From a bacterium (lineage in GTDB: Bacteria > Patescibacteriota > Minisyncoccia > Phycocordibacterales > UBA9973), in NCBI GenBank assembly GCA_037143195.1, contig JBAWZD010000001.1, forward strand, positions 16,892 to 80,891: a stretch of 64,000 nt of DNA, read 5' to 3'. Positions 46,708-63,296 of this stretch are shown here, in pieces (position 1 is the first letter of the stretch; each line of letters opens with the position of its first letter). The notes under the pieces are model-generated. The model saw only the letters and a list, made by a program, of their open reading frames with translations, was not told the origin of the DNA and did not search any database. The position numbers and the translations under genes are program-made.

Positions 46708-47175
46708 ATGAAAAACAAACAAGCTGGTTTTACCTTGATTGAACTTTTGGTCGTCATCGCGATTATCGGTATTCTTGCGACTATCGTGCTTACATCGCTT
46801 GGAAGTGCTCGTGTAAAAGCAAATGATGCGAAAGTTCAAGCACAACTTTCTTCGATGCGTGCGCAAGGAGAAATGTTTTTTGGCGATAATTCTAATTATG
46901 GTAGTTCACAATCTTCATATGGAGATTGTCATACAGGGGAGTTATTTCTTAGTGGATCGAATACACTCTTTTCGCTTATTACTGCGATTCCATCAACATA
47001 CACGGTAGCTTGTTATGAAGATCCGTATGGTTCAGGAAGTGCCAGTGTTTGGGCTGTTACGGCTTCGAATGGTCTTACCGTGGGGGGTGCTTCGTGGTGC
47101 GCAGATAGTACCGGTCAGTTTAAGAATTACTCAGGATCAACTCCTGTGACTCCAGTGCTTGCAGTTTGTCAGTAG
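46708..47175 (+). CDS. Type IV pilin / pseudopilin with a prepilin N-terminal methylation motif
   Basis: KQAGFTLIELLVVIAIIGILA class III signal peptide; a C-terminal Cys pair. Confidence 0.85.
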   Translation: MKNKQAGFTLIELLVVIAIIGILATIVLTSLGSARVKANDAKVQAQLSSMRAQGEMFFGDNSNYGSSQSSYGDCHTGELFLSGSNTLFSLITAIPSTYTVACYEDPYGSGSASVWAVTASNGLTVGGASWCADSTGQFKNYSGSTPVTPVLAVCQ

Positions 47176-47192
47176 CCAAATTTGTAAAGGTT

Positions 47193-47228
47193 GCAACAAA
47201 AAAACGCCGAATGGCGTTTTTTTGTTGC
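47193..47228. terminator. Bidirectional intrinsic terminator with a 16-bp perfect stem gcaacaaaaaaacgcc/ggcgtttttttgttgc
   Basis: Read directly. It sits between the pilin gene (+) and tRNA-Ala (-). Confidence 0.8.
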
Positions 47229-47259
47229 GTGTCTTTGTCTCGCGAGAATCGAACAGGTG

Positions 47260-47332
47260 TGGACCCTAGGAGATTCGAACTCCTGACCTCCTCTTTGCAA
47301 AAGAGGCGCTCTACCAACTAAGCTAAGGGCCC
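47260..47332 (-). tRNA. tRNA-Ala (anticodon TGC), G3:U70 and A73 present, CCA not encoded
   Basis: The reverse complement is GGGCCCTTAGCTTAGTTGGTAGAGCGCCTCTTTTGCAAAGAGGAGGTCAGGAGTTCGAATCTCCTAGGGTCCA, with a cloverleaf and anticodon loop TTTGCAA. Confidence 0.85.
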
Positions 47333-47467: not shown

Positions 47468-50400
47468 ATGGACTGGCTTTCTGATTTTGCTAGCCGTATC
47501 CAAGAGAAACTCGATAAATATACGCGCGAGTTTTTTGTCGTGACTACTCATTTTTTGAATCGAATTACGAAGCGTTTAGGCAGTTCTTTTACGTTTACAA
47601 AAGAAAAAACACGCATATCGGTGATTGGACTTGTTGTAGTACTTGTCACTTCGTCTATCATTTTTGCTCCACATAGTTCTGCGACGGTTTCTGATTTTTA
47701 TCCAGGTACTTGTTCTGGTGGGTGGCTCAATCCTCAGAATGCCACTGGTTTACCGTCACTCGATGGGGTGCAGCCTGCGAATAGCTATACAGAAAAAAAT
47801 TCTGCTGTGCTTAATAATTCACATTCTGATATCGTTTGTAATAACTTTGCCGGAAATATTCCAAGTGGAACAAATCCAAAAACATTTACGGTTAAATTCC
47901 ATTGGTCGATTGACGACGGATCTGTTGCACATGATGGGGTGTCTACTCCCACACCAGCTACGACAACAGATGTTATTTCTGCACCAGCTACGACGTCTCA
48001 ATCACCAAGCGACACCACCACAGCTACACAAACTCCAACCGATACAAAAACTACAACTGACACAACAATCCCTGCATCAACAATCACGACACCAACACCA
48101 ACACCAACTTCAGACACGACAACGACTCCACCAGCTACACCAGTAATCACACCTGATGCAACTCCGGTAGTTCCAGCAACTCCGGTACTTACTGCGCCAA
48201 CTACTTCGTCCGATACTCAGCCCGCAGCAGACACGACAATTCCAACAACAACGCCTGCGGCTACTACTGCAACAACCGATCAACCAAAGACAGTAGCGTC
48301 TGCATTCAAAAAAACACTTGCAACTCTCGATGCGCTTGTAACGGACGCGTTGAGTGCTGGTGACACAACAATGTTTCATTCTCCAAGTGATATGTTTGTC
48401 GTTCGCTATTCCGTAGACGGAACTAACTGGAACGATATTGGCACAGTCAATGCTGCAAATTGGCAGACTGCTACGTTTACGATATCTGGGCCAGACATCG
48501 CAGGATGGAGTGATCTTTCAAAATTACATGTTGGACTTTTTAGTCTTTCTCCTGATGGAACACAGCCTGTTGTGTATATCGATGCTGTTGAAGTCGATGT
48601 TGATTATGCTGATGCGAGCACTTCAGTTATCGTTCCGACAGTGAAAGTCGTCGACCCGTCTATCTCAATCGTTGCTCCGCAAAAAGATAATTTTACTTTG
48701 GATGAGGCACCGGTGTTTTCTATCACTAACCCAAATCTTTCAACTGCTCAAATTTTACACCTTGTTCAAAATGACAAAGCCGTCGTTGTTGACGACCACT
48801 TGGGTGTTTTTTCTGAGACAGCACCCAAAACGATACCAACGCAACCTCCGACGAGTCAGACAGATACAGGCCCGACAAGTTCGACTTTGACAGCACCAGC
48901 GCAATCTCCAAGCGACACCACCACAGCTACACAAACTCCAACCGATACAAAAGCTACGGCTGATACAAAAGTTCCCACTGATACAAAAACTACAACTGAC
49001 ACAACAATCCCTGCATCAACAATCACGACACCAGAACCAACACCAACACCAACACCAACTTCAGACACGACAACGACTCCACCAGCTACACCAGTAATCA
49101 CACCTGATGCAACTCCGGTAGTTCCAGCAACTCCGGTACTTACTGCGCCAAGTGAAACAACATCAGCTCAAACTGTAACGCCAGCACCAGTATCGGCGCC
49201 TGTTCAACCAGTTTCAGATTTGAATAGCGCGATTTCGACGAGTACGGCAGATTCTTCAAACCTCGGCGCGTTTGCTGTTGGTGCGCTTGGATCGGATATC
49301 ACTGGCGTCCAAGCGTTTCAGAAAGTTGATTTCAAGCACCTATTTGCGAACACCGTTCTGCGCTATTACAGCATGATGCGACAGGTATTTCGTATGTCGT
49401 TTGCAAACGCATTGCTTGCGCTTGCGGGGGACACGGCATCATCACCAATCGATGCTGTGGTGCTCGATGCTTCAGGCAATCAAACGACGATTGCAGTTAC
49501 AGTACAACATGTGGTCGTGAATGGTGTTGGTCAAGATCAAGTTGTCGTCAGTAAGCCTGACAATATGTTTCGTCCTGGAAAATATACGCTTCAAGTTACA
49601 TTACATACTCCCGACGTGAATATCATTTCCGAACAAGATTTTTCATGGGGCGTACTTGCAATCAACGTTGATCGTTCCGTCTATCACGCAGGAGACACCG
49701 CGTATGTACAGATGGGTGTGATTGACGACTTTGGGCATACAATCTGTGATGCCGACATGACGCTCGTTATTACGAGTCCATTTGGTGTTGATCAGACATA
49801 CACGACGAGTGATGGGACTGTCGTACGCGAACCGCAATGTGGACCGGACAATTATATTCATGTCCCTGATTACTATGCACATCCCCATATTGGGAGCGAG
49901 GAAGGTGTGTATCATATGACACTCACGGCGAATACGCGAAATGGTATTCGTACGGTACACGATGCGTTTACGGTCAGCTCTGATATTCCATTTGATGTTG
50001 TGCGTAGTGGTCCGACTCGTGTGTATCCGGCCGATAAGTATCCGGCAGAAATGCAGATTACTTCGCCTGTCGATTGGCAGGGAACAATCGTTGATACGCT
50101 ACCGAGTTCTTTTGAGGTGAGTGCGCTCGATGGAGTGGCTCTGTATGATACTGTGACGACGACTGGTGATACAACGACGGTGACATGGAATGTTTCGCTC
50201 GTCGCAGGCAAAACAACAACTATCGGATATTCATTCTTGCCGCCACCAATCAGTCCAGAATTTTATTTGCTCGGACCGCTCACTTTTTATAATAAAGGTG
50301 ATGACAGTACGACTGCCATTCCGGTCTTTAAAGAAATGCGTCGTTGGCAAATCGCAGACGATTCTTCATGTACATATATCGGTCCAGCGATTGGATTTTG

Positions 50401-53400
50401 GAATAATGCGAGTAACTGGAGTTGTTTACGTGTGCCAACAACGGGCCCAAATAGTGATACGGTAACAATTCCGACTGGAAATACTGTTACTCTCGACACG
50501 AACACACCAGCAACTGGTGGTGCGCTTACCTTACTTACTATTGCGGGGACACTAAAGACAGGATCTGCTGGTGTTGATTACAATATAAATACTACGGCTT
50601 TAACCATAAGTAGTGGAGGTGTTTTGAATGCAACTTCGGCCGCTTCGGGTTCGACGATCATTATTAACGGGAGCGGGACGGGTGCAGGTCGCCCATTTCA
50701 GAATGCCGGAACATTTACGCCCGGAACTTCTACTTTTCAATATGTTACTTCAGGTACTGATATCGAGGCTACTACGTATTATAACCTTACCATCAATGGT
50801 GGATCTGGAAACGACACATTAAATGGCGATACTATTGTTACGAATAATCTTTTGGTGGGAAACGCGAGTAGTGGTGTTGCCTTTTCTACATCAGCAACTT
50901 CCAATTATCGCCTTACTGCAGGACACATCACATTAGGTCCTGTATCTGCGGGCAGTATGACCTTCGCTGCGAATGCCTCAACTATTACCCTTACTGGTGA
51001 TACCTCTTTGCCACTGTTTACCAATAGTGTCGCTGGGGGCAGTACTGCCTTCATTGCTGGAACTTCAACAATTTCTGTTACGAGTGATTATAGCGGTGTA
51101 ACTATTTTTGGAGGATTGGCCACTAACTTTTACAATATCACGTTACAGCCAAACTTTTCCGCTGCTACCTGTGCTTCTGGAACATGTAATTATTCAGTCG
51201 GGGTTTTGCCGACAGTAGCAGCAGCAGGTCTATTTGACGTAAAACCGAACGGATCGGGGCATACGTTAACAGTTGACGTAAATACTATTGCAACGAATTC
51301 AACTTTTGGCGCTTCAGCTACTGTTAAAATAGAAGGCACCGCGGGCGCTTCTGGCGTCCTGACAGGGTCCGGATGCGTGTATACTGCGAGTACGTTGCCA
51401 ACGTTTTATGGGGTGATAACAACTTTGAACGGAGCAAGTGGGTTAGGAACATCGTTTTTAGTTAATTCGTCTGCTGGCATTGTTCCGGGAGAGCCAATAC
51501 AGATTGACTCAGAAGAGATGCTTGTGAATACCGTTGTTGGTTCAACGCTTAATGTTACTCGTGGTTTGAATGGAACCTCGATTGTGAGTCATGCGACTTC
51601 TGCCATAGTTATTGAACCATATCAGCCAATGGGGACGCCGTGTTATACAAAAACAATTGATGTCGAGTCCGGAGGCACGTTTAGCGGATCTTCGACATTT
51701 TTTGAGGTCTCAAATATTTTGGTCGGGAACGGAGGACAATTCAATGCAGGTTCATCCTCATTTATTTATACAGATGGTCTTATTAGTTCGAATCAAATTC
51801 TGATTTCGAGCGGAGGTACATTTAATGCAGGAAGTAGTATTATAAATATAGGTGGAGATAATACGTTACAAAGTACTGGTACTACAAATACTTTTATAAC
51901 GAATAATGGTACATTCACCGCTGGAACTTCAACTGTCTATTTTAATATGGTAAATAATGGTTCGGCAGTTAATCAAATTTACAATGCTGGTTTGTGGACA
52001 GGCAGCAACAAGTTTTATAATCTTGCTCTGAATACGTATGTTCCAGGTACAAATAATTATCAATTGGGAGCTGATACTGAAGTTGCAAATATCGTATCAT
52101 ATGGTAGATGGGGGGCTCGATTAGATACAAATAATTTTAATTTAACTGTTGGGTATGTTGATTTTTGCCATTCTCTCGGACTGGGGGCATTTATTGTTAC
52201 GAATGCTTCGGGCACCAAAAGTGTAACGCTCAACGGTGCATCAGGAACATTGTTTAATAATGTGAATAGTGGTACTGGAGCCTTTGCAAAAACGTGTACT
52301 GGAGCATCTGCTATGACTACGACAACTGCGAATTTCGCAGTAACGAGCAATGCGAGTGTGACTATATTTGGGGTGTCTGCAATTTCATTTACAAATTTAA
52401 CCTTCGCTCCTCCTGCACTGCTAGCTGATGCAACATACACAATGGGTATTGTGCCGACACTCTCAGGTAGTTTAACAAGTAATCCATTGTCGCCGAGTGG
52501 CACCCCAACGCTCTTACTTTCTGGAGCATTAACAATTCCAGCAGCAAAAACGTTCACGGTTTCTGGAGATAGCCACACAAGTACAAAATTGTTGAGTAAT
52601 TATAGTGTGGGGCTCGTCTCAATTGCGTCAACTGGTATTCTTCTGGCAAATACTACAACATTGACGATAACAGGTACATCTGGAACTTTATTTGCAAACA
52701 GTGGAACATTTACGCCTGGGACTTCGACTGTGACGTTTGGTGGAGCGAGTGTAAGCGCAACTTTGGACTCGGGCAACTTTGCTATTAGTGGTACCTCAAC
52801 AAATAACTTTTACAACCTCACGATAACTGGCACAGGTACATTTACCCTTGGTGCGCCAACTGAAGTGACCGGTACTTCTGGTATTTCTCTTCCAGCGAAC
52901 GTAACACTTGATGCTTCGTCTTCGGCATGTTCAGGTTTAAGTTGTAACATTACGGCAGCAACTATTTTTATTACAAGTAATGCTGGTTCAATATTCAACG
53001 CAAGAAATGCAACTATCAAGTTGACTGGTACCGGAACTCCTGCAACACTCTTCACACGCGGTTCCGCAGGAGTGTTTACTGCGGGTACTTCGACGGTCCA
53101 AGTCATGACTCCGTCAGGAGTGGCACGTTTCCTCTCTGGTGCGGGAACGGTATTTTATAACGTGACGATCGGGGATGCCGGAGTCAGTGCCACTGTTGTA
53201 AATGCGGGAGACAACTTCACTATTGCGAGTGGAGGTACATTTTACTTGAAGAATGGCAGTTTTGATCTCGACGGTTCTACAGTTGCTGTGATTACGGCAT
53301 CGTCATCGACGACCATGCGCATGGATTCTGGTACGCTCTTTTGTATTGGAGGTACGACTGGTGCCTCGGCGCTCGCCGATTGTACCGGAGGTGTGGCTTC

Positions 53401-54169
53401 GACTGGTGCACTCGCATCTGCTCCAGCATTCACGACATTTACCTTTGCTTCAGGTTCAACAATCAAATACTTGAATGCTGCAGCCCAGACTGTTTTCACT
53501 GCATTCCCATACGTTAACCTTACGGTTGCACCGATAGTGGCAGCAGCTACGACATATGCAATGACGGCTGCATCGATGACGGTGAACGGCAATCTTACGG
53601 TCAATCCGACAGGATCTGCGTTTGCGTTTGTGTGGAATATGTCTGGTTCGATTGCGATTACCCCGCAGGATGGTACGACAAGCGCAGTAAACGAAATGCT
53701 GATTAAAAAATCAGGCTCAGTCACATCTGTTACGGTAAACACGAACAATAATACAATTACGACAGGTACGATGGATATCGAGTCGGGCGCGACACTTAGC
53801 GCTGGTTCGTCCAATATTACAGTGCCGGGCAACTGGATTTGTAACGGGACGTTCACTTCAGGTACTTCAAGCGTTCTCTTGAGTAACACGATCACCACAC
53901 TTCCATCATCAACACTCACTACCGTTGGGGGAATCAACAGTGCCGTTCTCTCATTTTCTGTCGCATCCGGGACCGGCATTGTCGCGGGGGAAACGATTCA
54001 GATTGATAACGAAATGATGCAGGTGACAGCAGTCAGTGGAACGACAGTTACCGTCGCGGCTCGTGGAGCAAACGGCACGGCAGCTATCAGTCACTCAGCC
54101 GGAGCGACGGTGCTAGTCATTGTCGGCGTTGTATCAGGAACAACGTCATTCGCAAACTTGATCATCTAA
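47468..54169 (+). CDS. Giant (2233 aa) cell-surface protein: N-terminal anchor, Thr/Pro mucin-like repeats, and a long array of predicted parallel beta-helix-like Gly/Thr/Ser/Asn-rich repeats
   Basis: A single uninterrupted ORF. Signal-anchor helix (ISVIGLVVVLVTSSIIF). The recurrent motif F.NAGTFT.GTSTV appears at least five times. A duplicated ~45-aa module GE.IQID.E.M.V...G.T..V.RG.NGT..SH..A occurs near aa 1360 and at the C-terminus. Confidence 0.8.
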   Translation: MDWLSDFASRIQEKLDKYTREFFVVTTHFLNRITKRLGSSFTFTKEKTRISVIGLVVVLVTSSIIFAPHSSATVSDFYPGTCSGGWLNPQNATGLPSLDGVQPANSYTEKNSAVLNNSHSDIVCNNFAGNIPSGTNPKTFTVKFHWSIDDGSVAHDGVSTPTPATTTDVISAPATTSQSPSDTTTATQTPTDTKTTTDTTIPASTITTPTPTPTSDTTTTPPATPVITPDATPVVPATPVLTAPTTSSDTQPAADTTIPTTTPAATTATTDQPKTVASAFKKTLATLDALVTDALSAGDTTMFHSPSDMFVVRYSVDGTNWNDIGTVNAANWQTATFTISGPDIAGWSDLSKLHVGLFSLSPDGTQPVVYIDAVEVDVDYADASTSVIVPTVKVVDPSISIVAPQKDNFTLDEAPVFSITNPNLSTAQILHLVQNDKAVVVDDHLGVFSETAPKTIPTQPPTSQTDTGPTSSTLTAPAQSPSDTTTATQTPTDTKATADTKVPTDTKTTTDTTIPASTITTPEPTPTPTPTSDTTTTPPATPVITPDATPVVPATPVLTAPSETTSAQTVTPAPVSAPVQPVSDLNSAISTSTADSSNLGAFAVGALGSDITGVQAFQKVDFKHLFANTVLRYYSMMRQVFRMSFANALLALAGDTASSPIDAVVLDASGNQTTIAVTVQHVVVNGVGQDQVVVSKPDNMFRPGKYTLQVTLHTPDVNIISEQDFSWGVLAINVDRSVYHAGDTAYVQMGVIDDFGHTICDADMTLVITSPFGVDQTYTTSDGTVVREPQCGPDNYIHVPDYYAHPHIGSEEGVYHMTLTANTRNGIRTVHDAFTVSSDIPFDVVRSGPTRVYPADKYPAEMQITSPVDWQGTIVDTLPSSFEVSALDGVALYDTVTTTGDTTTVTWNVSLVAGKTTTIGYSFLPPPISPEFYLLGPLTFYNKGDDSTTAIPVFKEMRRWQIADDSSCTYIGPAIGFWNNASNWSCLRVPTTGPNSDTVTIPTGNTVTLDTNTPATGGALTLLTIAGTLKTGSAGVDYNINTTALTISSGGVLNATSAASGSTIIINGSGTGAGRPFQNAGTFTPGTSTFQYVTSGTDIEATTYYNLTINGGSGNDTLNGDTIVTNNLLVGNASSGVAFSTSATSNYRLTAGHITLGPVSAGSMTFAANASTITLTGDTSLPLFTNSVAGGSTAFIAGTSTISVTSDYSGVTIFGGLATNFYNITLQPNFSAATCASGTCNYSVGVLPTVAAAGLFDVKPNGSGHTLTVDVNTIATNSTFGASATVKIEGTAGASGVLTGSGCVYTASTLPTFYGVITTLNGASGLGTSFLVNSSAGIVPGEPIQIDSEEMLVNTVVGSTLNVTRGLNGTSIVSHATSAIVIEPYQPMGTPCYTKTIDVESGGTFSGSSTFFEVSNILVGNGGQFNAGSSSFIYTDGLISSNQILISSGGTFNAGSSIINIGGDNTLQSTGTTNTFITNNGTFTAGTSTVYFNMVNNGSAVNQIYNAGLWTGSNKFYNLALNTYVPGTNNYQLGADTEVANIVSYGRWGARLDTNNFNLTVGYVDFCHSLGLGAFIVTNASGTKSVTLNGASGTLFNNVNSGTGAFAKTCTGASAMTTTTANFAVTSNASVTIFGVSAISFTNLTFAPPALLADATYTMGIVPTLSGSLTSNPLSPSGTPTLLLSGALTIPAAKTFTVSGDSHTSTKLLSNYSVGLVSIASTGILLANTTTLTITGTSGTLFANSGTFTPGTSTVTFGGASVSATLDSGNFAISGTSTNNFYNLTITGTGTFTLGAPTEVTGTSGISLPANVTLDASSSACSGLSCNITAATIFITSNAGSIFNARNATIKLTGTGTPATLFTRGSAGVFTAGTSTVQVMTPSGVARFLSGAGTVFYNVTIGDAGVSATVVNAGDNFTIASGGTFYLKNGSFDLDGSTVAVITASSSTTMRMDSGTLFCIGGTTGASALADCTGGVASTGALASAPAFTTFTFASGSTIKYLNAAAQTVFTAFPYVNLTVAPIVAAATTYAMTAASMTVNGNLTVNPTGSAFAFVWNMSGSIAITPQDGTTSAVNEMLIKKSGSVTSVTVNTNNNTITTGTMDIESGATLSAGSSNITVPGNWICNGTFTSGTSSVLLSNTITTLPSSTLTTVGGINSAVLSFSVASGTGIVAGETIQIDNEMMQVTAVSGTTVTVAARGANGTAAISHSAGATVLVIVGVVSGTTSFANLII
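48003..48200 (+). repeat. Copy 1 of a ~200-bp near-identical intragenic direct repeat (copy 2 at 48906-49150 carries two short in-frame insertions)
   Basis: DNA-level identity read directly: ...accaagcgacaccaccacagctacacaaactccaaccgatacaaaa... ...ccggtagttccagcaactccggtacttactgcgcca. It encodes QSPSDTTTATQTPTDTK...TPVLTAP twice. Confidence 0.85.
48906..49150 (+). repeat. Copy 2 of the intragenic direct repeat
   Basis: See copy 1. Confidence 0.85.
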
Positions 54170-54173
54170 AAGT

Positions 54174-56114
54174 ATGGTACTATTTTCACACACATCTATG
54201 TTTGGAAAAAAAATACAAAAAATTACTTTTTCAATCATCATTCTCTCCTTGTTGCTTGGGTTTTTTCCGAGTGACACATACGCGCTCGTTGCACTTTGGA
54301 CTGCGTCGCCAATTGCTACATCTACGGGAACAAAGACTGCTATTGCAACATCGGCAGATGGAACAAAACTTCTTGCGGGAGAAGGAGGTGGAACGAACGG
54401 AAAATTGTGGCTCTCGACGAACAGCGGTGTTTCGTGGACAGCACTGAGTACTGCGAGTTCGGGAATGGCGAATGGCAACTGGTTTGCGACTGCTATTTCT
54501 AACGATGGCCGAACAATGGCCGCTATTGATACAAATTCCGAAGGTACAACAATTGGACACGTTTGGACCTCTGTTGATGGAGGGACGACCATGGTAAAAC
54601 AAAATGGTACGAATGCCCCGTACGCTGCTCTGCTCGGCTTGGCTATGGCTGTAAGTGGATCCACAATCACAATAGTTGCGAGTGGAAGTAACGCTGATTA
54701 TTTATACACAGGGACTTGTTCAACCTCGTGCGGACTTACAACGAACTGGACTTGGACCAAATTAACATCTGCTGGTTCGGGAACATGGCGTGGAGTAACG
54801 ATAGATTCGACAGGGACAAAAATAGCAGGTGTTTTGAACGGTGGGTATATCTGGACAGGTACGTATAGCGGTTCGTGGACGATGACTCAACAAACCGGAG
54901 CCGGTTCACATACGTGGCTTGGAATTGCTTCGTCGCAAGATGGGAGCAGACTTGCTGCGACTATGAGTGGTGGCGATATTTGGACAGCGCAAGCACTCGG
55001 TACAGGCGCCTGTACTAGTAGTGCTACAGGGTATTGTTGGACTGACCAAACAGGATCAGGATCGAGCGCTTGGTACCAAATTGCGTCGTCAGCTGATGGT
55101 ACCAAGTTGCTTGCAGCTTCTTCGTTCTCAGGATCATCAAGTGTGTATGTCTCAAGTGATAGCGGGGTAACATGGGTTGCGCAACCTTCTGCGGGTAGTC
55201 GACCATGGCGCCAACTTGCGATGTCGTCTACTGGTCAATATATGTATGGTGCGGATTTGAACACATCAACAAACGGGATGATCGTTTCAGGGTACTCTCC
55301 GCAATTTTCTAAGCTAGTCCAATTTAGTGGAAGTGTTACTACTTCAAACTCATTTTCGGTAACTGGATACAGTGGAGGACTCATCAAACTTTATTCAACC
55401 AAGCCTGGTACTACGTGGTCGCTTACTCCCGCATTGACGGCGAATAATTCTGTTTCTTTTGCTGATGTGCAAGACAGTAGTTGCTCGGGCGCATCGAGCA
55501 CGAAAGTGATCAATGCGGCTTCGAGTACAGACGATGGACGCAATTCGTTGATTGGTACCGGCGGATGTTGGAATTTCACTCAGCCATATTTGAACTTTTC
55601 AATTTCAGCGACGGCGGTAGATTTTGGAGCTCTCCCAATCGGCACTGCTCGGTATGCAACTGGGAACGCACTTTTGGGAGGATCTCCCACCGATGTTGCC
55701 GCTCATCAGATTACAATTGCCACAAGTGGATCGGGTGGTTTCAATTTGTATGCGCAAGGACCATCGCTTACTTCTAGTACCCACACAATGCATTCGATTG
55801 GCGGAGTAAATACAAACATTTCCTCGTTTACGCCGACAACAGAAGAATTCGGAATTCGTCTTGTGAGAACGTCGGGGCCGGGTACTGTTGCAGGCGATAC
55901 ATTGCTCGTTCCGCCAACTGCGTATGATTATGGTGGAAATGGGTCAGGATATACTTATAACGGAGATGTTACAACTCCTGTTATCGCGACATATCGCGGA
56001 AGTTTGTTGACGACGACGGTATATGACGTACATTATGTTGCCTACGCGGTGGGTACGACGCCGTTGGGGAATTATTCGACCAATATTACCTATCTTGCAG
56101 TCGGAAACTTTTAG
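54174..56114 (+). CDS. Secreted BNR/Asp-box beta-propeller-like protein with a C-terminal WxL-like (Y-x-L variant) surface domain; the start is probably the Met at 54198
   Basis: Signal peptide (KITFSIIILSLLLGFF). Repeated S-x-D-G-x-T-W Asp-box motifs (STNSGVSWTAL, TSVDGGTTM, SSDSGVTWVA). The C-terminal ~180 aa are homologous to the C-terminus of the next protein and end NITYLAVGNF. Confidence 0.65.
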   Translation: MVLFSHTSMFGKKIQKITFSIIILSLLLGFFPSDTYALVALWTASPIATSTGTKTAIATSADGTKLLAGEGGGTNGKLWLSTNSGVSWTALSTASSGMANGNWFATAISNDGRTMAAIDTNSEGTTIGHVWTSVDGGTTMVKQNGTNAPYAALLGLAMAVSGSTITIVASGSNADYLYTGTCSTSCGLTTNWTWTKLTSAGSGTWRGVTIDSTGTKIAGVLNGGYIWTGTYSGSWTMTQQTGAGSHTWLGIASSQDGSRLAATMSGGDIWTAQALGTGACTSSATGYCWTDQTGSGSSAWYQIASSADGTKLLAASSFSGSSSVYVSSDSGVTWVAQPSAGSRPWRQLAMSSTGQYMYGADLNTSTNGMIVSGYSPQFSKLVQFSGSVTTSNSFSVTGYSGGLIKLYSTKPGTTWSLTPALTANNSVSFADVQDSSCSGASSTKVINAASSTDDGRNSLIGTGGCWNFTQPYLNFSISATAVDFGALPIGTARYATGNALLGGSPTDVAAHQITIATSGSGGFNLYAQGPSLTSSTHTMHSIGGVNTNISSFTPTTEEFGIRLVRTSGPGTVAGDTLLVPPTAYDYGGNGSGYTYNGDVTTPVIATYRGSLLTTTVYDVHYVAYAVGTTPLGNYSTNITYLAVGNF

Positions 56115-56177
56115 GTATGACGCACAATGTTGCATTTTTTTGGGAGAATTGTGCTATAATAACTGCGTAAAATTAAT

Positions 56178-57332
56178 ATGAAAAAAAATAGTATGATTAA
56201 GAATAAATTTTTGCGATTTTTGTCGCCACTCATGTCGTTCGTGCTTGTTCTTGCAACGGCAGGGTTGTTCAATGTCTCTATAGTGAGAGCTGCCTCTTTG
56301 ACTCTCTTGTCAGATACCCTTACGGATGAGACGACGGGGGCTCCGACAAATAATGATATTCTTTTTACGACAAGTTCTACCATTCCTACCAATGGCACAA
56401 TCACACTTTCATTTAGTGCCGGTAGCGTTACTTCAGGAATCACAACTTCGGATGTGTTTTTGTCAGTAGGTGGTGGCGCAAACGTTGCGCAAGTCGGATC
56501 TGCTACTTCATCTCTGTGGGGATTCGCTCGAACAAGTGCAACTCTCATTACGATTACAGCGCCAACAAGTGGCTCAACTTCTGCGAGTGCAATCGAAATT
56601 AAACTTTTGAACAATAAATTTACGAATGGTGCTGCTGGAACGACTTTGTTGACTATCACTACGACAAACGCAGCATTTGCAACTTTGGATACTGGGGTGA
56701 TAGCGATTCCAATTTTGTCACCAACCACAACAGGTGATCAGGTTGCAGTTACAGCTACAGTGAATCCTACGATTAGTTTTTCACTTGATTCAAACTCAGT
56801 TGATTTCGGACCTCTGACACCTGGTACGGGCAAGTGGGCAACATCACCATCAGGATCTGGAGGCTCAGGAAGTGATGTCGCGGCTACGAACATGACGATT
56901 TCGACGAATGCTGCACATGGGTACACGCTTACATATACTGCGGCCGCTCCACTTACTTCAGGATCAAATACGATTCCAGCGACAACGCTTTGTAATACAC
57001 TGACGACGACAGGAGGCACATCAACATCGCAGTTTGCGATGAGTGAGGTAGTTACTGGTTCTGGAACACCGGTAACTAGTTACAACCATGCGAATGCATC
57101 AGCCACAACTCTTTCGGGAAGTAGCGGTACGTCAGGAGCAACTTGTACCGGTACAGGAGGAACTCGTCCGAATTGGAACTTTGTTTCGGGTACAACGACG
57201 CCGATAGTCACAGCTACATCTGCTGTTGCGGGTGATACGGTAGCGATGCACTATATGGCAAACGTATCCGGCACTCAGGCCCCAGGTACCTATAACCTTA
57301 CTATCACTTATCTTTTAACGGGTAATTTTTAA
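56178..57332 (+). CDS. Secreted surface protein with a C-terminal WxL-like (Y-x-L variant) domain
   Basis: Signal peptide. The C-terminal domain ISFSLDSNSVDFGPLTPGTGKWATSP...GTYNLTITYLLTGNF is paralogous to the C-terminus of the 54174 protein. Confidence 0.65.
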   Translation: MKKNSMIKNKFLRFLSPLMSFVLVLATAGLFNVSIVRAASLTLLSDTLTDETTGAPTNNDILFTTSSTIPTNGTITLSFSAGSVTSGITTSDVFLSVGGGANVAQVGSATSSLWGFARTSATLITITAPTSGSTSASAIEIKLLNNKFTNGAAGTTLLTITTTNAAFATLDTGVIAIPILSPTTTGDQVAVTATVNPTISFSLDSNSVDFGPLTPGTGKWATSPSGSGGSGSDVAATNMTISTNAAHGYTLTYTAAAPLTSGSNTIPATTLCNTLTTTGGTSTSQFAMSEVVTGSGTPVTSYNHANASATTLSGSSGTSGATCTGTGGTRPNWNFVSGTTTPIVTATSAVAGDTVAMHYMANVSGTQAPGTYNLTITYLLTGNF

Positions 57333-57337
57333 TTCTT

Positions 57338-58399
57338 ATGAAAATAAAGACACTCCAAGGTGTGATGTTTGCTGTGTTGCTTGCGTTTGGTTTTGTATCT
57401 CCACAAATAACTCACGCGCTTACCATAACTCCTTCACGCCTTGAATTGAGTGGAGATCCGGGTACGACTGTCACTGAAAAAATGACAGTGGTCAACGATC
57501 AAAACGTTCTTGGAACATACTATTCTTCCTACGCGAACTTCGAAGCCGAGGGGGATACAGGAACCCCAGCGCTTGTTGAAGCCAAAGATGATCTTGGGAC
57601 GTGGATGAGTACTCCAGATTCTATTGTGGTAGCACCAGGTGGATCAAAGGAAGTTGTAATAAAAATTGCAATTCCTAAGAATGCTACACCGGGAGGTCAC
57701 TTCGCGGCCATTTTTTGGGGAACTCAGCCAACAAAGAATGCAAATAAAAATATAGGTATTGGTGCAAAGACTGGCATGCTCGTTTTGCTCACTGTAAATG
57801 GAAATATTCCAGAGCAGGGAGGTGTGACCGAGTTTGATACCATCGGAAGCACTCATTACTTCAACGCACTGCCGATTCCTTTTTACTACCGTTTCCAAAA
57901 TGGAGGAGGTGATCGCATCAATCCAAGTGGTGACATTCTTATGAAGGATATGCTTGGGCTTACAGGAGCAAAAGTTCCTGGTAATCCAGTTGATGGAAAT
58001 ATTCTTCCACTCAGTACTCGCAAATTTACAACAACATGGTCAGGTGGTGCAGGGGAAGAAGGTAAGCTTCCAAAAGGATTCTTTGCCGCTGCAAATTATG
58101 AGTTACACAACTTTGCACTTGGACGTTACACTGCTCACCTCAAACTCACATATGGCTCGAAGGGGGTAGTGACTGATTCAGTCGTTCATTTTGTTGTGTG
58201 GCCATGGCATCTCGTCGTGTTTGTTCTCATCCTCGCATTTGTTATCTTCCTCGTTGTTCGCTACGCAGTACTCCATGGAGAAAAATGGGTAGTCAACAAA
58301 GCTGAGAAAATGCTTGAGAAAGACGAAGAAGCAAAAATCGAAGAACGAGTTGAAGAAAAATTGAAAGAAATCGAAAAGGAGAAAGAAACAAAGCAGTAA
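57338..58399 (+). CDS. DUF916-like (CscA-like) cell-surface protein with a C-terminal TM anchor and a charged tail
   Basis: Signal peptide; an N-terminal domain (ITPSRLELSGDPGTTVTEKMTVVND..., IKIAIPKNATPGGHFAAIFWG) resembling DUF916; a C-terminal TM helix (HLVVFVLILAFVIFLVV) plus a KE-rich tail. Confidence 0.55.
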   Translation: MKIKTLQGVMFAVLLAFGFVSPQITHALTITPSRLELSGDPGTTVTEKMTVVNDQNVLGTYYSSYANFEAEGDTGTPALVEAKDDLGTWMSTPDSIVVAPGGSKEVVIKIAIPKNATPGGHFAAIFWGTQPTKNANKNIGIGAKTGMLVLLTVNGNIPEQGGVTEFDTIGSTHYFNALPIPFYYRFQNGGGDRINPSGDILMKDMLGLTGAKVPGNPVDGNILPLSTRKFTTTWSGGAGEEGKLPKGFFAAANYELHNFALGRYTAHLKLTYGSKGVVTDSVVHFVVWPWHLVVFVLILAFVIFLVVRYAVLHGEKWVVNKAEKMLEKDEEAKIEERVEEKLKEIEKEKETKQ

Positions 58400-58462: not shown

Positions 58463-59698
58463 GTGAAGCACTCAATTTTCCCAAAAAAAATCAGACGAGC
58501 GTTTAGTATTCTTTTTGTCTGTACGTTTGTGCTTGGATTACTTCCTCAAACTTCTTTTGCTACTCCATCACCAATTTCAGATGGCGTTACGATTTCTGCT
58601 CAGGTCGTAAGTGTCGGTTCAGTTGTTCCTCCGACGGTCACTACAGATCATCCATTGGTGACTGTGAGCGACAACGGGGCGACGTTGCTCGGAACACTCT
58701 CCGACGGTGGAGATTCTGCTGTGACAACCGAAGGATTTGAATATGGACTCGCGTCGCCTTCATATGGAACGACAACGACTTCAACATCAGTTGGTTTTGG
58801 TAATGGACAATTCAACGCGATCATAACGGGTCTCGTATGTGGCACGACGTATCACTATCGTGCGTATGCAGAAAACGGTGCCGGTCGTGCATACGGAACA
58901 GACCAAACATTTACAACGAATGATTGTTCTGTGAATGTACTTCCAGTCACTTCCCCGGGGAATGGAGGAATACTTACTGCGTCGGCGGTAAACTTTTCTG
59001 GCTTTGCATACCCAGGAGCGACAGTGACAATCCTGCGTGACGGCGTAATTGTTTCAAATGTTCTTGCGGATTCATCCGGAGCGTTTCTGTCGCCGGTGTC
59101 GGGAATTCAAGCAGGTTCATATGTTTTTTCTATCTATGCAAAAGATCAGAATGGTGTTGTGTCAGCGTCCACGACATTTCCATTTGTCTTGAATGGAAAA
59201 TCAGTCGTGAATATTACCAACATATTGGTTGCTCCGACAATATCAGCAGACAAGACGATTGTGCAGTCAGGCGACACACTCACTGTTTCCGGTTTCGCTA
59301 CTCCGTACGCAAAAGTTGCAATCACGAGTAAACAATTGACCACCGTGTACGACGCTATCGCTGATGCTGGTGGCCGATATCAATATCAGATTGATGCATC
59401 AGCGCTCGCAACTGGTGCCTACACCATGCACGCCATTGATATTGTTGCGGGGCAGAGTAGTCCTATCAGTAAAGGTATTCTCTTTTTGATGGGCCTCTCG
59501 ACGACCAAAGTAAAAGAGACCAATCTCGGATGCGCAGGCGGTGATTTAAATGGAGATGGCAAAGTGGACATCATCGATTATTCAATCATGAAATATTGGT
59601 ACAAAAAACCAAATCCACCAGCATGTGTTGATCTCTCTGGCGATGGAGCGATCAACTTGAAAGATTTTAGTATCCTCGCTTCTGATTGGACAGGATAA
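58463..59698 (+). CDS. Secreted multi-Ig/FN3-like protein with a C-terminal dockerin-type duplicated calcium-binding module
   Basis: Signal peptide. The C-terminus carries DLNGDGKVDIIDYSIM ... DLSGDGAINLKDFSIL, two dockerin-like Ca-binding loops. Confidence 0.65.
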   Translation: MKHSIFPKKIRRAFSILFVCTFVLGLLPQTSFATPSPISDGVTISAQVVSVGSVVPPTVTTDHPLVTVSDNGATLLGTLSDGGDSAVTTEGFEYGLASPSYGTTTTSTSVGFGNGQFNAIITGLVCGTTYHYRAYAENGAGRAYGTDQTFTTNDCSVNVLPVTSPGNGGILTASAVNFSGFAYPGATVTILRDGVIVSNVLADSSGAFLSPVSGIQAGSYVFSIYAKDQNGVVSASTTFPFVLNGKSVVNITNILVAPTISADKTIVQSGDTLTVSGFATPYAKVAITSKQLTTVYDAIADAGGRYQYQIDASALATGAYTMHAIDIVAGQSSPISKGILFLMGLSTTKVKETNLGCAGGDLNGDGKVDIIDYSIMKYWYKKPNPPACVDLSGDGAINLKDFSILASDWTG

Positions 59699-59702
59699 TT
59701 GT

Positions 59703-60683
59703 ATGAGTATAGCGAAACTACAAAAAAATTCGTTTTTCTTCATCGTTCTCTTTTTTTCGATGTTCGTTTTTTCGCATCAGGCCCGAGCGGCGAGTATTAC
59801 ATTTCAAACGTCATCGACGGTCGTGCACCAAGCACAAAATATTGCGATTGATGTCTTGCTTGATCCGCAAGGTCAAAATGTGAACACCGTCTCAGCGACT
59901 GTTTCAATTCCAACAGATCTTGATTATGTTGGTGTTGATGACAGCTCCTCGATTATTAGTTTGTGGGTTGATGAACCAAAGTTTGACAAGAAAACTCGTA
60001 CCATGACACTCTCAGGAATTATCCCTGGAGGATTTGCAGGATCGATTGATCCGTTTAATCCGTCTGAATACAAGGCGGGTATCCTCATTCGATTGTTACT
60101 CCGAGGCCGTACAGCAGGTTCAGGATTGTTTTCACTTCCTGATGTCGAAGCATATTTGAATGATGGTCTCGGCACACAGACCCATGTTTCATCTGGTTCG
60201 CTCCCACTCGTCGTCGATGAATTGTTGCAACCTGGATCGCTTGATTTCTTCCCAGACAACCAAGCTCCGCTTGAATTCCAGCCAGTTGTCGAACGTGATT
60301 TGCTCCTCTATGATAATCAACGCGTACTCATTTTCAATACCAAAGACAAAGGCTCAGGTATGGATCACTATGAGGTCAAAGAAGGGAATGCTTCATGGGT
60401 AGTCGCAGTAAGTCCATACCTCTTGAAAGATCAGGAGATGAAGGGAGATATTTTGGTGAAGGCGGTGGATCGTGATGGCAACGAACGTATCGAAGCTATT
60501 CCCGCAGCGAATCCGTTCAACAAATGGCAAATCGTTGGACTGTTTGTAGTGTTCATATTGCTTGTGGTGCTCACGATGATGCACCTGTCCCACCATATGC
60601 ACCATTCAATCAAGAAGCATATTGAGAAGAAAGAAACTGAAAAGGGTGGATCAGCCAAGGAGGACGTAATTCAGAAAGTATAG
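59703..60683 (+). CDS. Membrane-anchored protein with an N-terminal cohesin-like beta-sandwich domain (candidate dockerin receptor)
   Basis: Signal peptide, a cohesin-like segment (ITFQTSSTVVHQAQNIAIDVLLDP...VSATVSIPTDLDYVGVDD), and a C-terminal TM helix (IVGLFVVFILLVVLTMM) with a His/Lys-rich tail. Confidence 0.45.
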   Translation: MSIAKLQKNSFFFIVLFFSMFVFSHQARAASITFQTSSTVVHQAQNIAIDVLLDPQGQNVNTVSATVSIPTDLDYVGVDDSSSIISLWVDEPKFDKKTRTMTLSGIIPGGFAGSIDPFNPSEYKAGILIRLLLRGRTAGSGLFSLPDVEAYLNDGLGTQTHVSSGSLPLVVDELLQPGSLDFFPDNQAPLEFQPVVERDLLLYDNQRVLIFNTKDKGSGMDHYEVKEGNASWVVAVSPYLLKDQEMKGDILVKAVDRDGNERIEAIPAANPFNKWQIVGLFVVFILLVVLTMMHLSHHMHHSIKKHIEKKETEKGGSAKEDVIQKV

Positions 60684-60684
60684 T

Positions 60685-61599
60685 ATGCATATCGTAAACG
60701 CTATTTTGATTGTTCTCGGTCTCGCGATTTTTGAAATTGTCTCAAGTATCGACAATGCCGTCATCAATGCTGAAATTCTCGACACGATGAGTGCTCGTGG
60801 ACGCAAGTGGTTTATGCTTTGGGGATTTTTGTTTGCAGTCTTTGCGGTTCGTGGACTACTTCCATGGGTCATCATCTGGGCGACGAATCCTTCACTCGGA
60901 GCTGTTGGAGCGTTGACTGCAACGTTCTCAAACGATCCTCGCATCGCGGCTTCTATTGCACAATCAGCGCCACTCTTGCTCGCGGGCGGGGGAATATTTT
61001 TGGTATTTCTTTTCTTGCATTGGCTTTTCTTGGAACCAAAACAAATCGGTTTGCATCATGAACGATTCTTTTTGCGTCAGGGTGTGTGGTTTTACGGAGT
61101 CGCTGCGGTCATTCTCTCTATTGTCGTTTGGTATGGACTCAAAACAAATCCCATCATGGCGTTTGGAGCAGTCATTGGTTCCACTGCATTTTTCATCATG
61201 CATGGATTCAAAGAAAATGCCGAGCGCGCAGAAGAGAAACTCAAGAGCGGGGAGAGCAGTCGCTCTGATCTCTCAAAAATTTTGTACCTCGAAATTATTG
61301 ACGCATCGTTTTCTATCGACGGTATTTTGGGTGCATTCGCATTCACGCTCAGCGTGCCCTATATCTTGATTGGGAACGGAATCGGCGCCTTCGTCCTCCG
61401 CGAGCTCACCGTCAAAAATATCGACACCATCAAGAAATATGTCTTCCTCAAAAACGGCGCCATGTACGCCATCGGTGCACTCTCCATAATCATGCTCCTC
61501 GGCGCCTTCGGCCACGAAATCCCAGAATGGGTCTCACCTCTCGTCATGCTAGTAATTGTAGGTTATTTCTTCCATAAATCGAAAAAGGTAATTCGATAA
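60685..61599 (+). CDS. TerC/DUF475-family integral membrane protein
   Basis: Multiple TM helices. The SIDNAVINAEIL and IDASFSIDGILGAFAF paired motifs are typical of the TerC/DUF475 superfamily. Confidence 0.6.
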   Translation: MHIVNAILIVLGLAIFEIVSSIDNAVINAEILDTMSARGRKWFMLWGFLFAVFAVRGLLPWVIIWATNPSLGAVGALTATFSNDPRIAASIAQSAPLLLAGGGIFLVFLFLHWLFLEPKQIGLHHERFFLRQGVWFYGVAAVILSIVVWYGLKTNPIMAFGAVIGSTAFFIMHGFKENAERAEEKLKSGESSRSDLSKILYLEIIDASFSIDGILGAFAFTLSVPYILIGNGIGAFVLRELTVKNIDTIKKYVFLKNGAMYAIGALSIIMLLGAFGHEIPEWVSPLVMLVIVGYFFHKSKKVIR

Positions 61600-61736: not shown

Positions 61737-61763
61737 GCCAAAAATACCCTTTGTATGTATAAT
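61735..61763 (+). promoter_or_regulatory. Candidate sigma70 promoter TTGCCA-17 nt-TATAAT for guaA
   Basis: Hexamers at 61735-61740 and 61758-61763. The ATG is at 61770. Confidence 0.45.
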
Positions 61764-61769
61764 CATTTC

Positions 61770-63296
61770 ATGGATACAATTCTCATCTTGGATTTCGGAG
61801 GTCAGTCGTGCCATCTTATTTCTCGCCGTTTGCGTGATTTTGGTGTCTACGCCGAAGTGCTCCCATCAGACTATTCTGCCAAACAAATCATGGCGCGTCC
61901 TGAAGTAAAGGGCGTCATTCTCTCGGGGGGTGCTCGTTCCGTCTATGAGAAGAACGCTCCCGAATTCGACAAGGCCATTTTCAATCTCGACATGCCACTT
62001 TTTGGTATTTGTTACGGTCACCAACTCCTCGCCAAACAGCTCGGCGGTACGGTAGAAAACGGCACAGTTGGTGAATATGGTCAGCAGACACTCGCCATCA
62101 CCAAGAAGACTGGACTCTTTGCAGGACTCTCAGCAAAAGAAAAAATCTGGATGAACCACAAAGATGTCGTTACAAAAATGCCTGAAGGATTTACGGTCAT
62201 CGGCAAGACATCACACTCGGCAATCGCTGCGTACGCATCAAAGGACAACAAACGCGTCGGTGTGCAATTCCACCCAGAAGTCAGTCACACCGATCACGGC
62301 ACCGAAATGCTCAAGAATTTCGCCGTGAACATTTGTAAGATCAAACCGACCTACACATCTGCAAACTTGCTCAAAGAAACAATCAAAGAAGCTAAAGATA
62401 CGATGGGTGACGAACGTGCCGTCATTGGTCTCTCGGGTGGAGTGGATTCATCTGTTGCCGCAGCGCTCGTCGCGCGTGCCATCGGCGAGAATCTCACTGC
62501 GGTCTATGTAGACACAGGACTCATGCGTGAAGGTGAGACCGACTATCTCCGCAAAGCATTTGGAGACAAAGGCCTCAAGCTCATCATCGTCGATGCAGCC
62601 AAAGAATATTTCACCGCACTCAAAGGTGTGACTGATCCAGAAACAAAGCGCAAAATCATTGGAACACTCTTCGTTCGTATTTTTGAACGCGAAGCAAAGA
62701 AGACGAAGGCACAGTGGCTCATCCAAGGTACGATTTATTCTGATCGCATCGAAAGTGGTCTCACGAAACATTCTGCAAACATCAAGAGTCACCACAACGT
62801 CGGAGGACTGCCAAAAGATTTGGGACTCAAACTCTATGAACCACTTCGTGATCTCTACAAAGACGAAGTACGCACACTCGCGAAGACACTCAAACTTCCA
62901 AAAGAAATCACCGACAGACAGGTCTTCCCAGGCCCAGGTCTTGCGATTCGTATCATTGGTGAAGTGACTCCAGAGCGTGCCGCTATCGTCCGTAAGGCAG
63001 GGCACATCATCGAGAGCGAGCTCATGCACACGAAACATTGGAAAGATATTTGGATGAGTTTTGCGGTATTCCTTCCGGTGCAGTCTGTCGGTATCTCAGG
63101 TGACGAACGTTCGTACAAGCATCCGCTCGTCCTTCGTATCGTTGAATCGCGCGATGCCATGAGTGCAAACTTTGCCAAGCTTCCGTACGAAATTCTTGAG
63201 ACCATCTCAACTCGTCTCACAAACGAAATCAAAGAAATCAACCGTGTCGTCTACGACATCACCAACAAACCACCAGCAACAATGGAGTGGGAATAG
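61770..63296 (+). CDS. guaA: GMP synthase (glutamine-hydrolysing)
   Basis: GATase1 (ILILDFGGQS...CYGHQL), an ATP-PPase SGGVDSSV loop, and the C-terminal dimerisation domain. The 61770 start is preferred because the -10 box overlaps the 61755 ATG. Confidence 0.92.
   Translation: MDTILILDFGGQSCHLISRRLRDFGVYAEVLPSDYSAKQIMARPEVKGVILSGGARSVYEKNAPEFDKAIFNLDMPLFGICYGHQLLAKQLGGTVENGTVGEYGQQTLAITKKTGLFAGLSAKEKIWMNHKDVVTKMPEGFTVIGKTSHSAIAAYASKDNKRVGVQFHPEVSHTDHGTEMLKNFAVNICKIKPTYTSANLLKETIKEAKDTMGDERAVIGLSGGVDSSVAAALVARAIGENLTAVYVDTGLMREGETDYLRKAFGDKGLKLIIVDAAKEYFTALKGVTDPETKRKIIGTLFVRIFEREAKKTKAQWLIQGTIYSDRIESGLTKHSANIKSHHNVGGLPKDLGLKLYEPLRDLYKDEVRTLAKTLKLPKEITDRQVFPGPGLAIRIIGEVTPERAAIVRKAGHIIESELMHTKHWKDIWMSFAVFLPVQSVGISGDERSYKHPLVLRIVESRDAMSANFAKLPYEILETISTRLTNEIKEINRVVYDITNKPPATMEWE

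Follow-up and report, generated by a model that had tools for sequence, protein, structure and literature searches.

A candidate Pam-type pilus operon in a CPR bacterium, with a possible dockerin-cohesin anchor and a remote link to WxL-interacting proteins

What does a bacterium of the Candidate Phyla Radiation (CPR) do with a run of genes for secreted proteins that all carry the label 'hypothetical' in public records? The run considered here lies in a stretch of 64,000 nt of contig JBAWZD010000001.1 (the window), where an earlier note had drawn attention to three consecutive forward-strand open reading frames (ORFs), whose coordinates hold as it gave them: P1 (54174..56114, 646 residues), P2 (56178..57332, 384 residues) and P3 (57338..58399, 353 residues), with gaps of 63 nt between P1 and P2 and 5 nt between P2 and P3. 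The note took them for a Csc/WxL-like surface complex, an arrangement familiar from Firmicutes, in a CPR-like genome. The CPR-like origin stands, with homologues in metagenome-assembled genomes of Nomurabacteria, Paceibacterota and Minisyncoccia to support it; the function needs another account. The reading favoured here, with a probability of about 0.7, takes the locus for a compact operon that encodes a Pam-type pilus in a Paceibacteria/Nomurabacteria-like CPR bacterium. P1 is the candidate tip adhesin, P2 the candidate shaft pilin and P3 the candidate membrane-anchored pilin chaperone; two further forward-strand genes, P4 (58463..59698, candidate pilus terminator or adaptor) and P5 (59703..60683, candidate membrane anchor), belong with them. 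CPR bacteria (Patescibacteria) rely on attachment to host cells, and their surface machinery is largely unannotated.

The argument begins with the C-terminal domain (CTD) that P1 and P2 share. The resemblance already seen in the earlier note is clear in BLASTP (E 1e-11, 32% identity over ~200 residues), which aligns P1 residues 470-646 with P2 residues 196-384. Both proteins terminate in ...TITYLxxGNF-COOH, and in 80 related loci, found by scanning GTDB species genomes with a P3 profile and annotated ORF by ORF with hidden Markov models (HMMs), 131/131 complete CTDs finish exactly at [GAS][NTS][FY]-COOH. The NCBIfam model NF058581 (CPR_Pam_pilin_C, Pam pilus system pilin subunit) matches P1 (E 9e-11, 42 bits), P2 (E 2.5e-9, 37 bits) and 44 of the 48 P2 homologues collected by sequence and profile searches (best E 3.4e-53). 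In sister genomes its curated cutoff is exceeded (57-76 bits) by one shaft pilin, by the C-termini of two giants and by three of the four tip-type proteins that were tested. On these profile matches the CTD belongs to the Pam pilin C family, an assignment that is solid at the family level.

That model derives from the work of Troman et al. (bioRxiv 10.64898/2026.03.03.709456), who determined by cryo-electron microscopy (cryo-EM) the pilins PamA and PamB of Ca. Mycosynbacter amalyticus, a parasitic member of the Saccharimonadia. In both, one linker strand joins a beta-sandwich N-terminal domain (NTD) to an open immunoglobulin (Ig)-like CTD, which is completed by the linker of a neighbouring subunit. 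From AlphaFold models the same authors proposed transmembrane (TM)-anchored PapD/FimC-like chaperones (PamC and PamD), a linker-less tip subunit (PamT) and a membrane-anchored terminator (PamR). Other databases say less about the window. Pfam gave no match for P1, P2 or the isolated CTDs even at E <= 10, and none of its fimbrial models matched P1, P2 or P3; single-sequence and profile searches of the PDB with P1, P2, P3 and the CTD returned nothing relevant, in a PDB set that apparently lacks PamA and PamB. Pfam DUF2808 gave weak matches in 5 of the 48 P2-family pilins (best E 1.1e-4).

P2 has the parts that such a pilin needs in the expected order. A signal peptide is followed by a beta-sandwich NTD (residues 38-186, nt 56289-56735), a conserved linker or donor strand DQVAVTATVNPT (residues 187-198, nt 56736-56771) and the Pam pilin CTD (residues 199-384, nt 56772-57329). 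In the AlphaFold2 (AF2) model, at a mean predicted local distance difference test (pLDDT) score of 84, the NTD sandwich spans 42-180, DQVAVTATVNPT has no strand structure in the monomer, and the CTD comes next; the predicted plan of NTD, linker and CTD is the same as that of the published Pam pilins. The linker, D-x-V-x-V-T-A-T-V, is present in 71/71 proteins built of NTD and CTD, and in these the CTD alignment begins at profile position 1-3. It is present in 0/17 large CTD fusions, P1 included: in 16 of these 17 the CTD match begins only at position 6-12, following a Cys-containing 'GNNxxCW' junction. About 25 small CTD proteins likewise lack the donor strand. Shaft-type and tip-type proteins are thus told apart by the presence or absence of one strand.

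P1 is of the second type. Behind its signal peptide comes a BNR/Asp-box propeller-type module (about residues 39-430, nt 54288-55463), then a Cys-containing junction ending 'GGCW' (nt 55560-55577) and the CTD (nt 55581-56111), all on the forward strand; the CTD HMM picks up P1 at profile position 10, past the donor strand. The propeller, which the earlier note had read from the sequence, finds its support in homologues. The N-terminal region has no direct Pfam match and a modest periodicity of ~43 residues; an exhaustive HMMER search with it found 5,761 relatives, mostly repeated modules within very large proteins, and 10 of the 10 that were scanned, all at E <= 1e-46 to this region of P1, match BNR_6 Asp-box repeats, five of them above cutoff. 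Several also match the Sortilin-Vps10 or YCF48 propeller families. No tested protein reaches the 240-bit cutoff of the PamT equivalog model NF058579; by this measure, therefore, the linker-less tip-type proteins are to be taken as analogues and not as orthologues of PamT.

For P3 the evidence is structural as well as sequence-based, and it points in two directions at once. Its AF2 model (pLDDT 88) has an N-terminal signal-like helix, two beta-sandwiches (33-128 and 145-287, within an ectodomain of residues 27-288), a TM helix (residues 290-312, nt 58205-58273) and a long charged helix that forms the cytoplasmic tail. The model superposes across both domains on chaperones of chaperone-usher systems and on the WxL-interacting protein (WxLIP), which is its best two-domain structural match; on RbmA it superposes across one domain (105 residues). 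The family has R/K at position 34, in the first strand, in 54/54 members, and K/R at position 144 in 54/54, directly before the invariant strand TGxLVLLxV (in the window K144 and TGMLVLLTV, nt 57761-57796). R34 and K144 recall a pair in PapD, Arg8 and Lys112, by which the carboxylate of the pilin is clamped at the base of donor strand G1. The likeness to PapD is one of fold: neither PapD_N nor PapD_C of Pfam matches P3 or any of its 54 homologues.

The sequence of P3 leans toward WxLIP. Pfam WxLIP_PGBD (DUF916, PF06030) matches 46 of the 54 family members (best E 3.9e-6), and hhalign of P3 against WxLIP gives 62% for the ectodomain, 75% for domain 1 and 87% for the full length, as against 0.0-0.6% in reversed and cross-family controls. 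In the PDB a domain-1 profile has two matches at E <= 10; both are to EfmWxLIP1 and, with E about 0.8, fall short of significance. Domain 2 tells a different story: there is no DUF3324 signal, the hhalign value against WxLIP is 0.3%, and PF11797 matches nothing in the P3 family. The motif NQIDKxxxYFDLK of WxLIP is missing from the P3 N-terminus, which reads ALTITPSRLE. On these profile comparisons domain 1 of P3 would be remotely homologous to DUF916/WxLIP_PGBD, and P3 appears to be the closest sequence relative of WxLIP found outside the Firmicutes. A separate hhalign match to WxLIP, from alignment A5 (60%), was dismissed, as the aligned part is the TM-helix region.

The earlier note had counted three genes and suggested looking at their neighbourhood in related genomes. 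Order there is strongly conserved, and the module is larger: a giant or large adhesin, a CTD protein of ~335 residues, one to three NTD+CTD pilins, P3, P4, P5 and often P5b, a second and longer cohesin-type membrane protein that the window and locus L001 lack. In about 75 of the 80 genomes, synteny with the pilin genes extends to P4 and P5. P5b, in most of the related loci (L002-L080), lies downstream of P5 and, at about 300-690 residues, adds Ig domains and carries a long charged tail.

P4 has neither a CTD nor a TM segment. What it has is a signal peptide, a donor-strand-like VTISAQV (residues 42-48, nt 58586-58606), fn3/Ig (Big_6) domains, and a dockerin (residues 360-411, nt 59540-59695) that matches Pfam Dockerin_1 at 34 bits (cutoff 22.9). 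The family plan is a signal peptide, V-x-[IV]-[ST]-A-x-V, usually a poly-Gly linker, Ig (Big_6) domains and a C-terminal dockerin whose duplicated D-x-N-x-D segment is kept in the consensus. The N-terminal motif, whose logo closely resembles that of the pilin linker, is found in 61/73 P4 proteins versus 13/354 background ORFs (Fisher p 2e-48), and in 0/73 P5, 0/60 P5b and 2/81 P3 proteins. One homologue, at L004, is a chimera: a pilin NTD, DNDQVTISATV, poly-Gly, Ig domains and dockerin. The P4 of the window is ~100 residues longer than most homologues; after the donor-like strand it carries, in place of the poly-Gly linker, a domain resembling fn3 and purple-acid-phosphatase N-terminal domains.

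P5 begins, after its signal peptide, with a cohesin-like domain (about residues 30-170, nt 59790-60212); a second beta domain follows, then a TM helix (residues 275-295, nt 60525-60587) and a charged tail. The C-terminal TM helix is present in 73/73 family members, Pfam Cohesin matches 10 of 33 P5/P5b proteins (best 1e-10), and the top three PDB matches of the family profile are cellulosomal cohesins, led by 5g5d (E 4.6e-4). A single RbmA-like PamR, combining an N-terminal strand with a TM helix, is not found at the locus; its role seems to be split between P4, with donor-like strand and dockerin, and P5, with cohesin and TM helix.

CTD family membership, the folds, the gene order and the distribution of the donor motif are direct observations, and from them we infer a scheme of polymerisation, chaperoning, termination by P4 and P4-P5 binding. 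Sec would export all products. P2 would be the repeating shaft subunit; its CTD would be an Ig-like fold left incomplete, with a groove that takes up the linker strand of the next P2, in head-to-tail donor-strand exchange of the kind that cryo-EM showed for PamA and PamB. P1 would be confined to the distal tip, because it has the acceptor domain and lacks the donor strand, and there would display its BNR/Sortilin-type propeller as binding module; in sister genomes, giant adhesins would take the tip position. The two-domain adhesins FimH and PapG of chaperone-usher pili offer an analogy for such a role. P3 would be a chaperone that its C-terminal helix keeps in the membrane; one of its beta-strands, probably K144-TGMLVLLTV, would cap the open groove of newly exported pilins, and its conserved basic residues would clamp their free C-terminus (...GNF-COOH), before the pilins are passed on for strand exchange. 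No usher would be needed, because there is no outer membrane to cross. P4, with a donor-like strand at its mature N-terminus, would end polymerisation, since it can donate a strand but has no acceptor domain; and P5 would anchor the fibre, because the dockerin of P4 would bind the cohesin of the membrane-held P5 and so tether the pilus to the cell.

The locus shares several features with the Pam system. The CTD is of the same sequence family; both systems have two-domain pilins with a conserved linker strand, a linker-less tip-type subunit and a chaperone-like protein with two beta domains and a C-terminal TM helix; both lack an usher, and both hosts are CPR bacteria. The differences are that tips here are fused to adhesin modules (a BNR-type propeller in the window, elsewhere giants of 1,300-2,200 residues), that a single chaperone-like gene, with a sequence affinity to DUF916/WxLIP, stands where the Pam system has two, and that the dockerin protein P4, with its donor strand, and the cohesin anchors P5 and P5b stand in the place of PamR.

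Several observations weigh against a Pam-type pilus. P1 and P2, at 42 and 37 bits, fall under the 55-bit curated cutoff of NF058581. No Pam-chaperone model of NCBIfam matched the P3 family; P3 fits PamC and PamD in fold and TM helix, a likeness drawn from their description and not from sequence, and the comparison of R34 and K144 with PapD is one of sequence position, and so an analogy only. Fold searches with P2 put neither chaperone-usher nor Pam pilins among the top matches (in a PDB set apparently without PamA and PamB). The window P5 has no direct Pfam Cohesin match and is linked to cohesins through family homology. For pam operons an ATP-synthase neighbourhood is reported; this locus lacks it and adjoins housekeeping genes. 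Finally, filament assembly by P2 is read here from sequences, single-chain folds and gene order.

An alternative close to the earlier note would have P1 and P2 as monomers, held on the cell wall by non-covalent binding of their CTDs to peptidoglycan and stabilised by a WxLIP-like P3, with no polymer at all. Much about the locus invites it. In Lactobacillales, WxLIP consists of DUF916, DUF3324 and a TM helix, and clusters hold a small and a large WxL protein (Siezen 2006, PMC1534035; PMC9772566, PMC10599100); the layout of large protein, small protein and anchor is the same here, and the partner has two Ig-like domains, the first resembling DUF916, in a protein whose best two-domain structural match is WxLIP. 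A strand of WxLIP is predicted by AlphaFold to make the beta-sandwich of WxL complete, in parallel orientation (Hassan & Williamson, PMC10599100), which is a chaperone-like donor-strand complementation. The last strands are alike as well, G-x-Y-x-x-T-I-T-Y here and Y-x-x-T-I-T-W-x-L in WxL domains, and genuine L. plantarum proteins have Tyr variants of this G-x-Y-x-x-T-I-T-[WY] motif; the likeness, which had led the note to its tyrosine-for-tryptophan motif, falls short of homology. The CTD passes none of the WxL tests: Pfam WxL (PF13731) matches neither P1, P2 nor the 48 homologues at E <= 10, hhalign against 13 genuine WxL domains gives 1.6% (reversed controls 0.1-0.3%) with only the last strand aligned and a failed global alignment, and a CTD profile search of the PDB returns no WxL chain. 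The 'Y-x-L' motif itself is not conserved in the family, whose C-terminal consensus is T-Y-x-A-T-x-N-F. The shared domain matches instead another family, Pam pilin C, and members of that family form filaments by cryo-EM. Monomers would have no role for a linker strand that is strict in shaft-type and missing in tip-type proteins. Nor does the gene string contain an LPXTG-type, CscD-like ORF. P3, for its part, has the signal-like helix, beta domains, TM helix and charged tail that the note gave for a DUF916/CscA protein, with family matches to DUF916 for domain 1 and none to DUF3324. Of the Csc/WxL interpretation, then, the DUF916 affinity of P3 survives and the identity of the CTD does not; display of monomers is unlikely. 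By architecture the operon works like the Pam system, or like a chaperone-usher system without the usher, and is not a WxL cluster, from which it differs further in having a polymerisation donor strand and in phylum and envelope (CPR and not Firmicutes).

The scheme might also be wrong in its assignments, with P3 as the anchor or terminator of the fibre, in the manner of PamR or RbmA, and P4 and P5 as an unrelated cohesin-dockerin surface module that happens to be adjacent. This has little probability. The donor-like strand expected of a terminator is the one that P3 lacks and P4 has, and in the L004 chimera it even follows a pilin NTD; the superposition of P3 on chaperones and WxLIP extends over two domains but that on RbmA over one; and a chance neighbour would hardly keep its synteny with the pilin genes in nearly all of the genomes. 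Least probable of all is that these are independent adhesins or S-layer-like proteins with a common Ig-like 'stalk', whose motifs reflect folding needs only. The proteins are of low complexity and rich in Thr and Ser, and the fold searches with P2 are dominated by generic Ig-like folds (Gram-positive pilins, MSCRAMMs and cohesins). On such an account there is no explanation for the split into tips and shafts by donor strand, for a C-terminus that ends so exactly, for a dedicated two-domain partner with a TM anchor, or for the membership in the Pam pilin family.

A Pam-type pilus here would differ from the classical and archaic chaperone-usher systems (Pap, Fim, Csu, CFA/I) in several respects. 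The locus has no usher-like ORF and the cell no outer membrane; a TM helix ties the chaperone to the membrane; the donor strand lies within the pilin as a linker and does not extend its N-terminus; the pilins have two domains; and no PapD or fimbrial Pfam model is matched. With the cohesin-dockerin modules of cellulosomes and of non-cellulosomal systems it shares a Pfam-significant dockerin with duplicated Ca-binding segment, in P4, and profile matches of P5/P5b to cohesins in Pfam and the PDB; it differs in that it has no glycoside hydrolases or scaffoldins, a single-pass membrane protein carries its cohesin, and its dockerin protein bears a mimic of the pilin donor strand. The literature searched holds no paper that joins a dockerin with donor-strand pili, and none with cohesin-dockerin as a pilus anchor. 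A dockerin-domain protein is essential in a Saccharibacterium, where no link to pili was made (Wang et al., PMC10633639).

The joint proposal, that the pilus has a split P4/P5 dockerin-cohesin anchor and that the Pam-type chaperone shares ancestry with the WxLIP of Firmicutes, is tentative, and falls somewhat short of even odds. Its first half is a concrete suggestion for anchoring, by donor-strand mimic and dockerin-cohesin pair, that can be put to the test. If its second half holds, the WxL/Csc clusters of enterococci and lactic acid bacteria would not be a separate invention but would be related to the donor-strand (chaperone-subunit) systems of monoderms. A CPR pilus chaperone and the WxL-interacting protein found in Gram-positive pathogens and probiotics, the mechanism of which remains a matter of debate, would also be bridged at the level of sequence for the first time; the Pam preprint nowhere mentions WxL, WxLIP or DUF916 (bioRxiv 10.64898/2026.03.03.709456). 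If the pilus reading holds, a large and strongly syntenic Paceibacteria/Nomurabacteria cluster is placed in the newly described Pam class, with tip-only subunits whose propellers and giant adhesins are likely elements of host or substrate recognition.

The genuine WxL clusters used for comparison came from Enterococcus, Lactiplantibacillus, Lactococcus and other plasmids. In two L. plantarum plasmids (L085, 4207-4794; L091, 4207-4788) small proteins of Csc/WxL clusters carry Tyr for Trp at both motif positions (GYTIT, TIDYNIS); they are annotated merely as 'cell surface protein' or 'hypothetical protein'. E. faecium WxLIP1 structures are available as PDB 9i25 and 9i1y, the latter released in January 2026; EfmWxLIP1 is chain C of 9i25, an entry that may be a complex with WxL proteins.

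The five genes sit in a longer same-strand string, with intergenic gaps of 1-63 nt, that runs from a giant gene (47468..54169, forward strand) to a TerC-like gene. The giant, the first gene of the string and 4 nt ahead of P1, encodes a secreted or membrane-tethered surface protein of 2233 residues with a G8 domain and beta-helix-like repeats. In the window and L001 alone, a giant without Pam CTD is followed by a separate P1; position-equivalent giants of other loci mostly end in the CTD (...TYxxTGNF), and whether the window giant is part of the pilus is uncertain. Upstream lie a type IV pilin-like gene (46708-47175, forward strand; Pfam N_methyl, E 4e-11), a terminator-like hairpin with a 17-bp stem (47192-47229) and a tRNA-Ala (47259-47332, reverse strand). 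Promoter and terminator scans gave nothing above shuffled sequences, the hairpin and a site before guaA being the only notable features. The N_methyl pilin gene is separate from the cluster and unrelated to it in sequence, and a type IV pilus was set aside as an explanation; so was a sortase-dependent Gram-positive pilus, for which sortase, LPXTG and isopeptide signals are all missing. Downstream, a gene for a TerC/PRK14013-like membrane protein (60685-61599) begins 1 nt past P5 and is followed by guaA (61755-63296). L002 and L007 too have the TerC-guaA pair 3' of their pilus clusters; the operon thus keeps its place on the chromosome. An exact copy of the window P3 occurs on a Logan contig from run SRR12676973.

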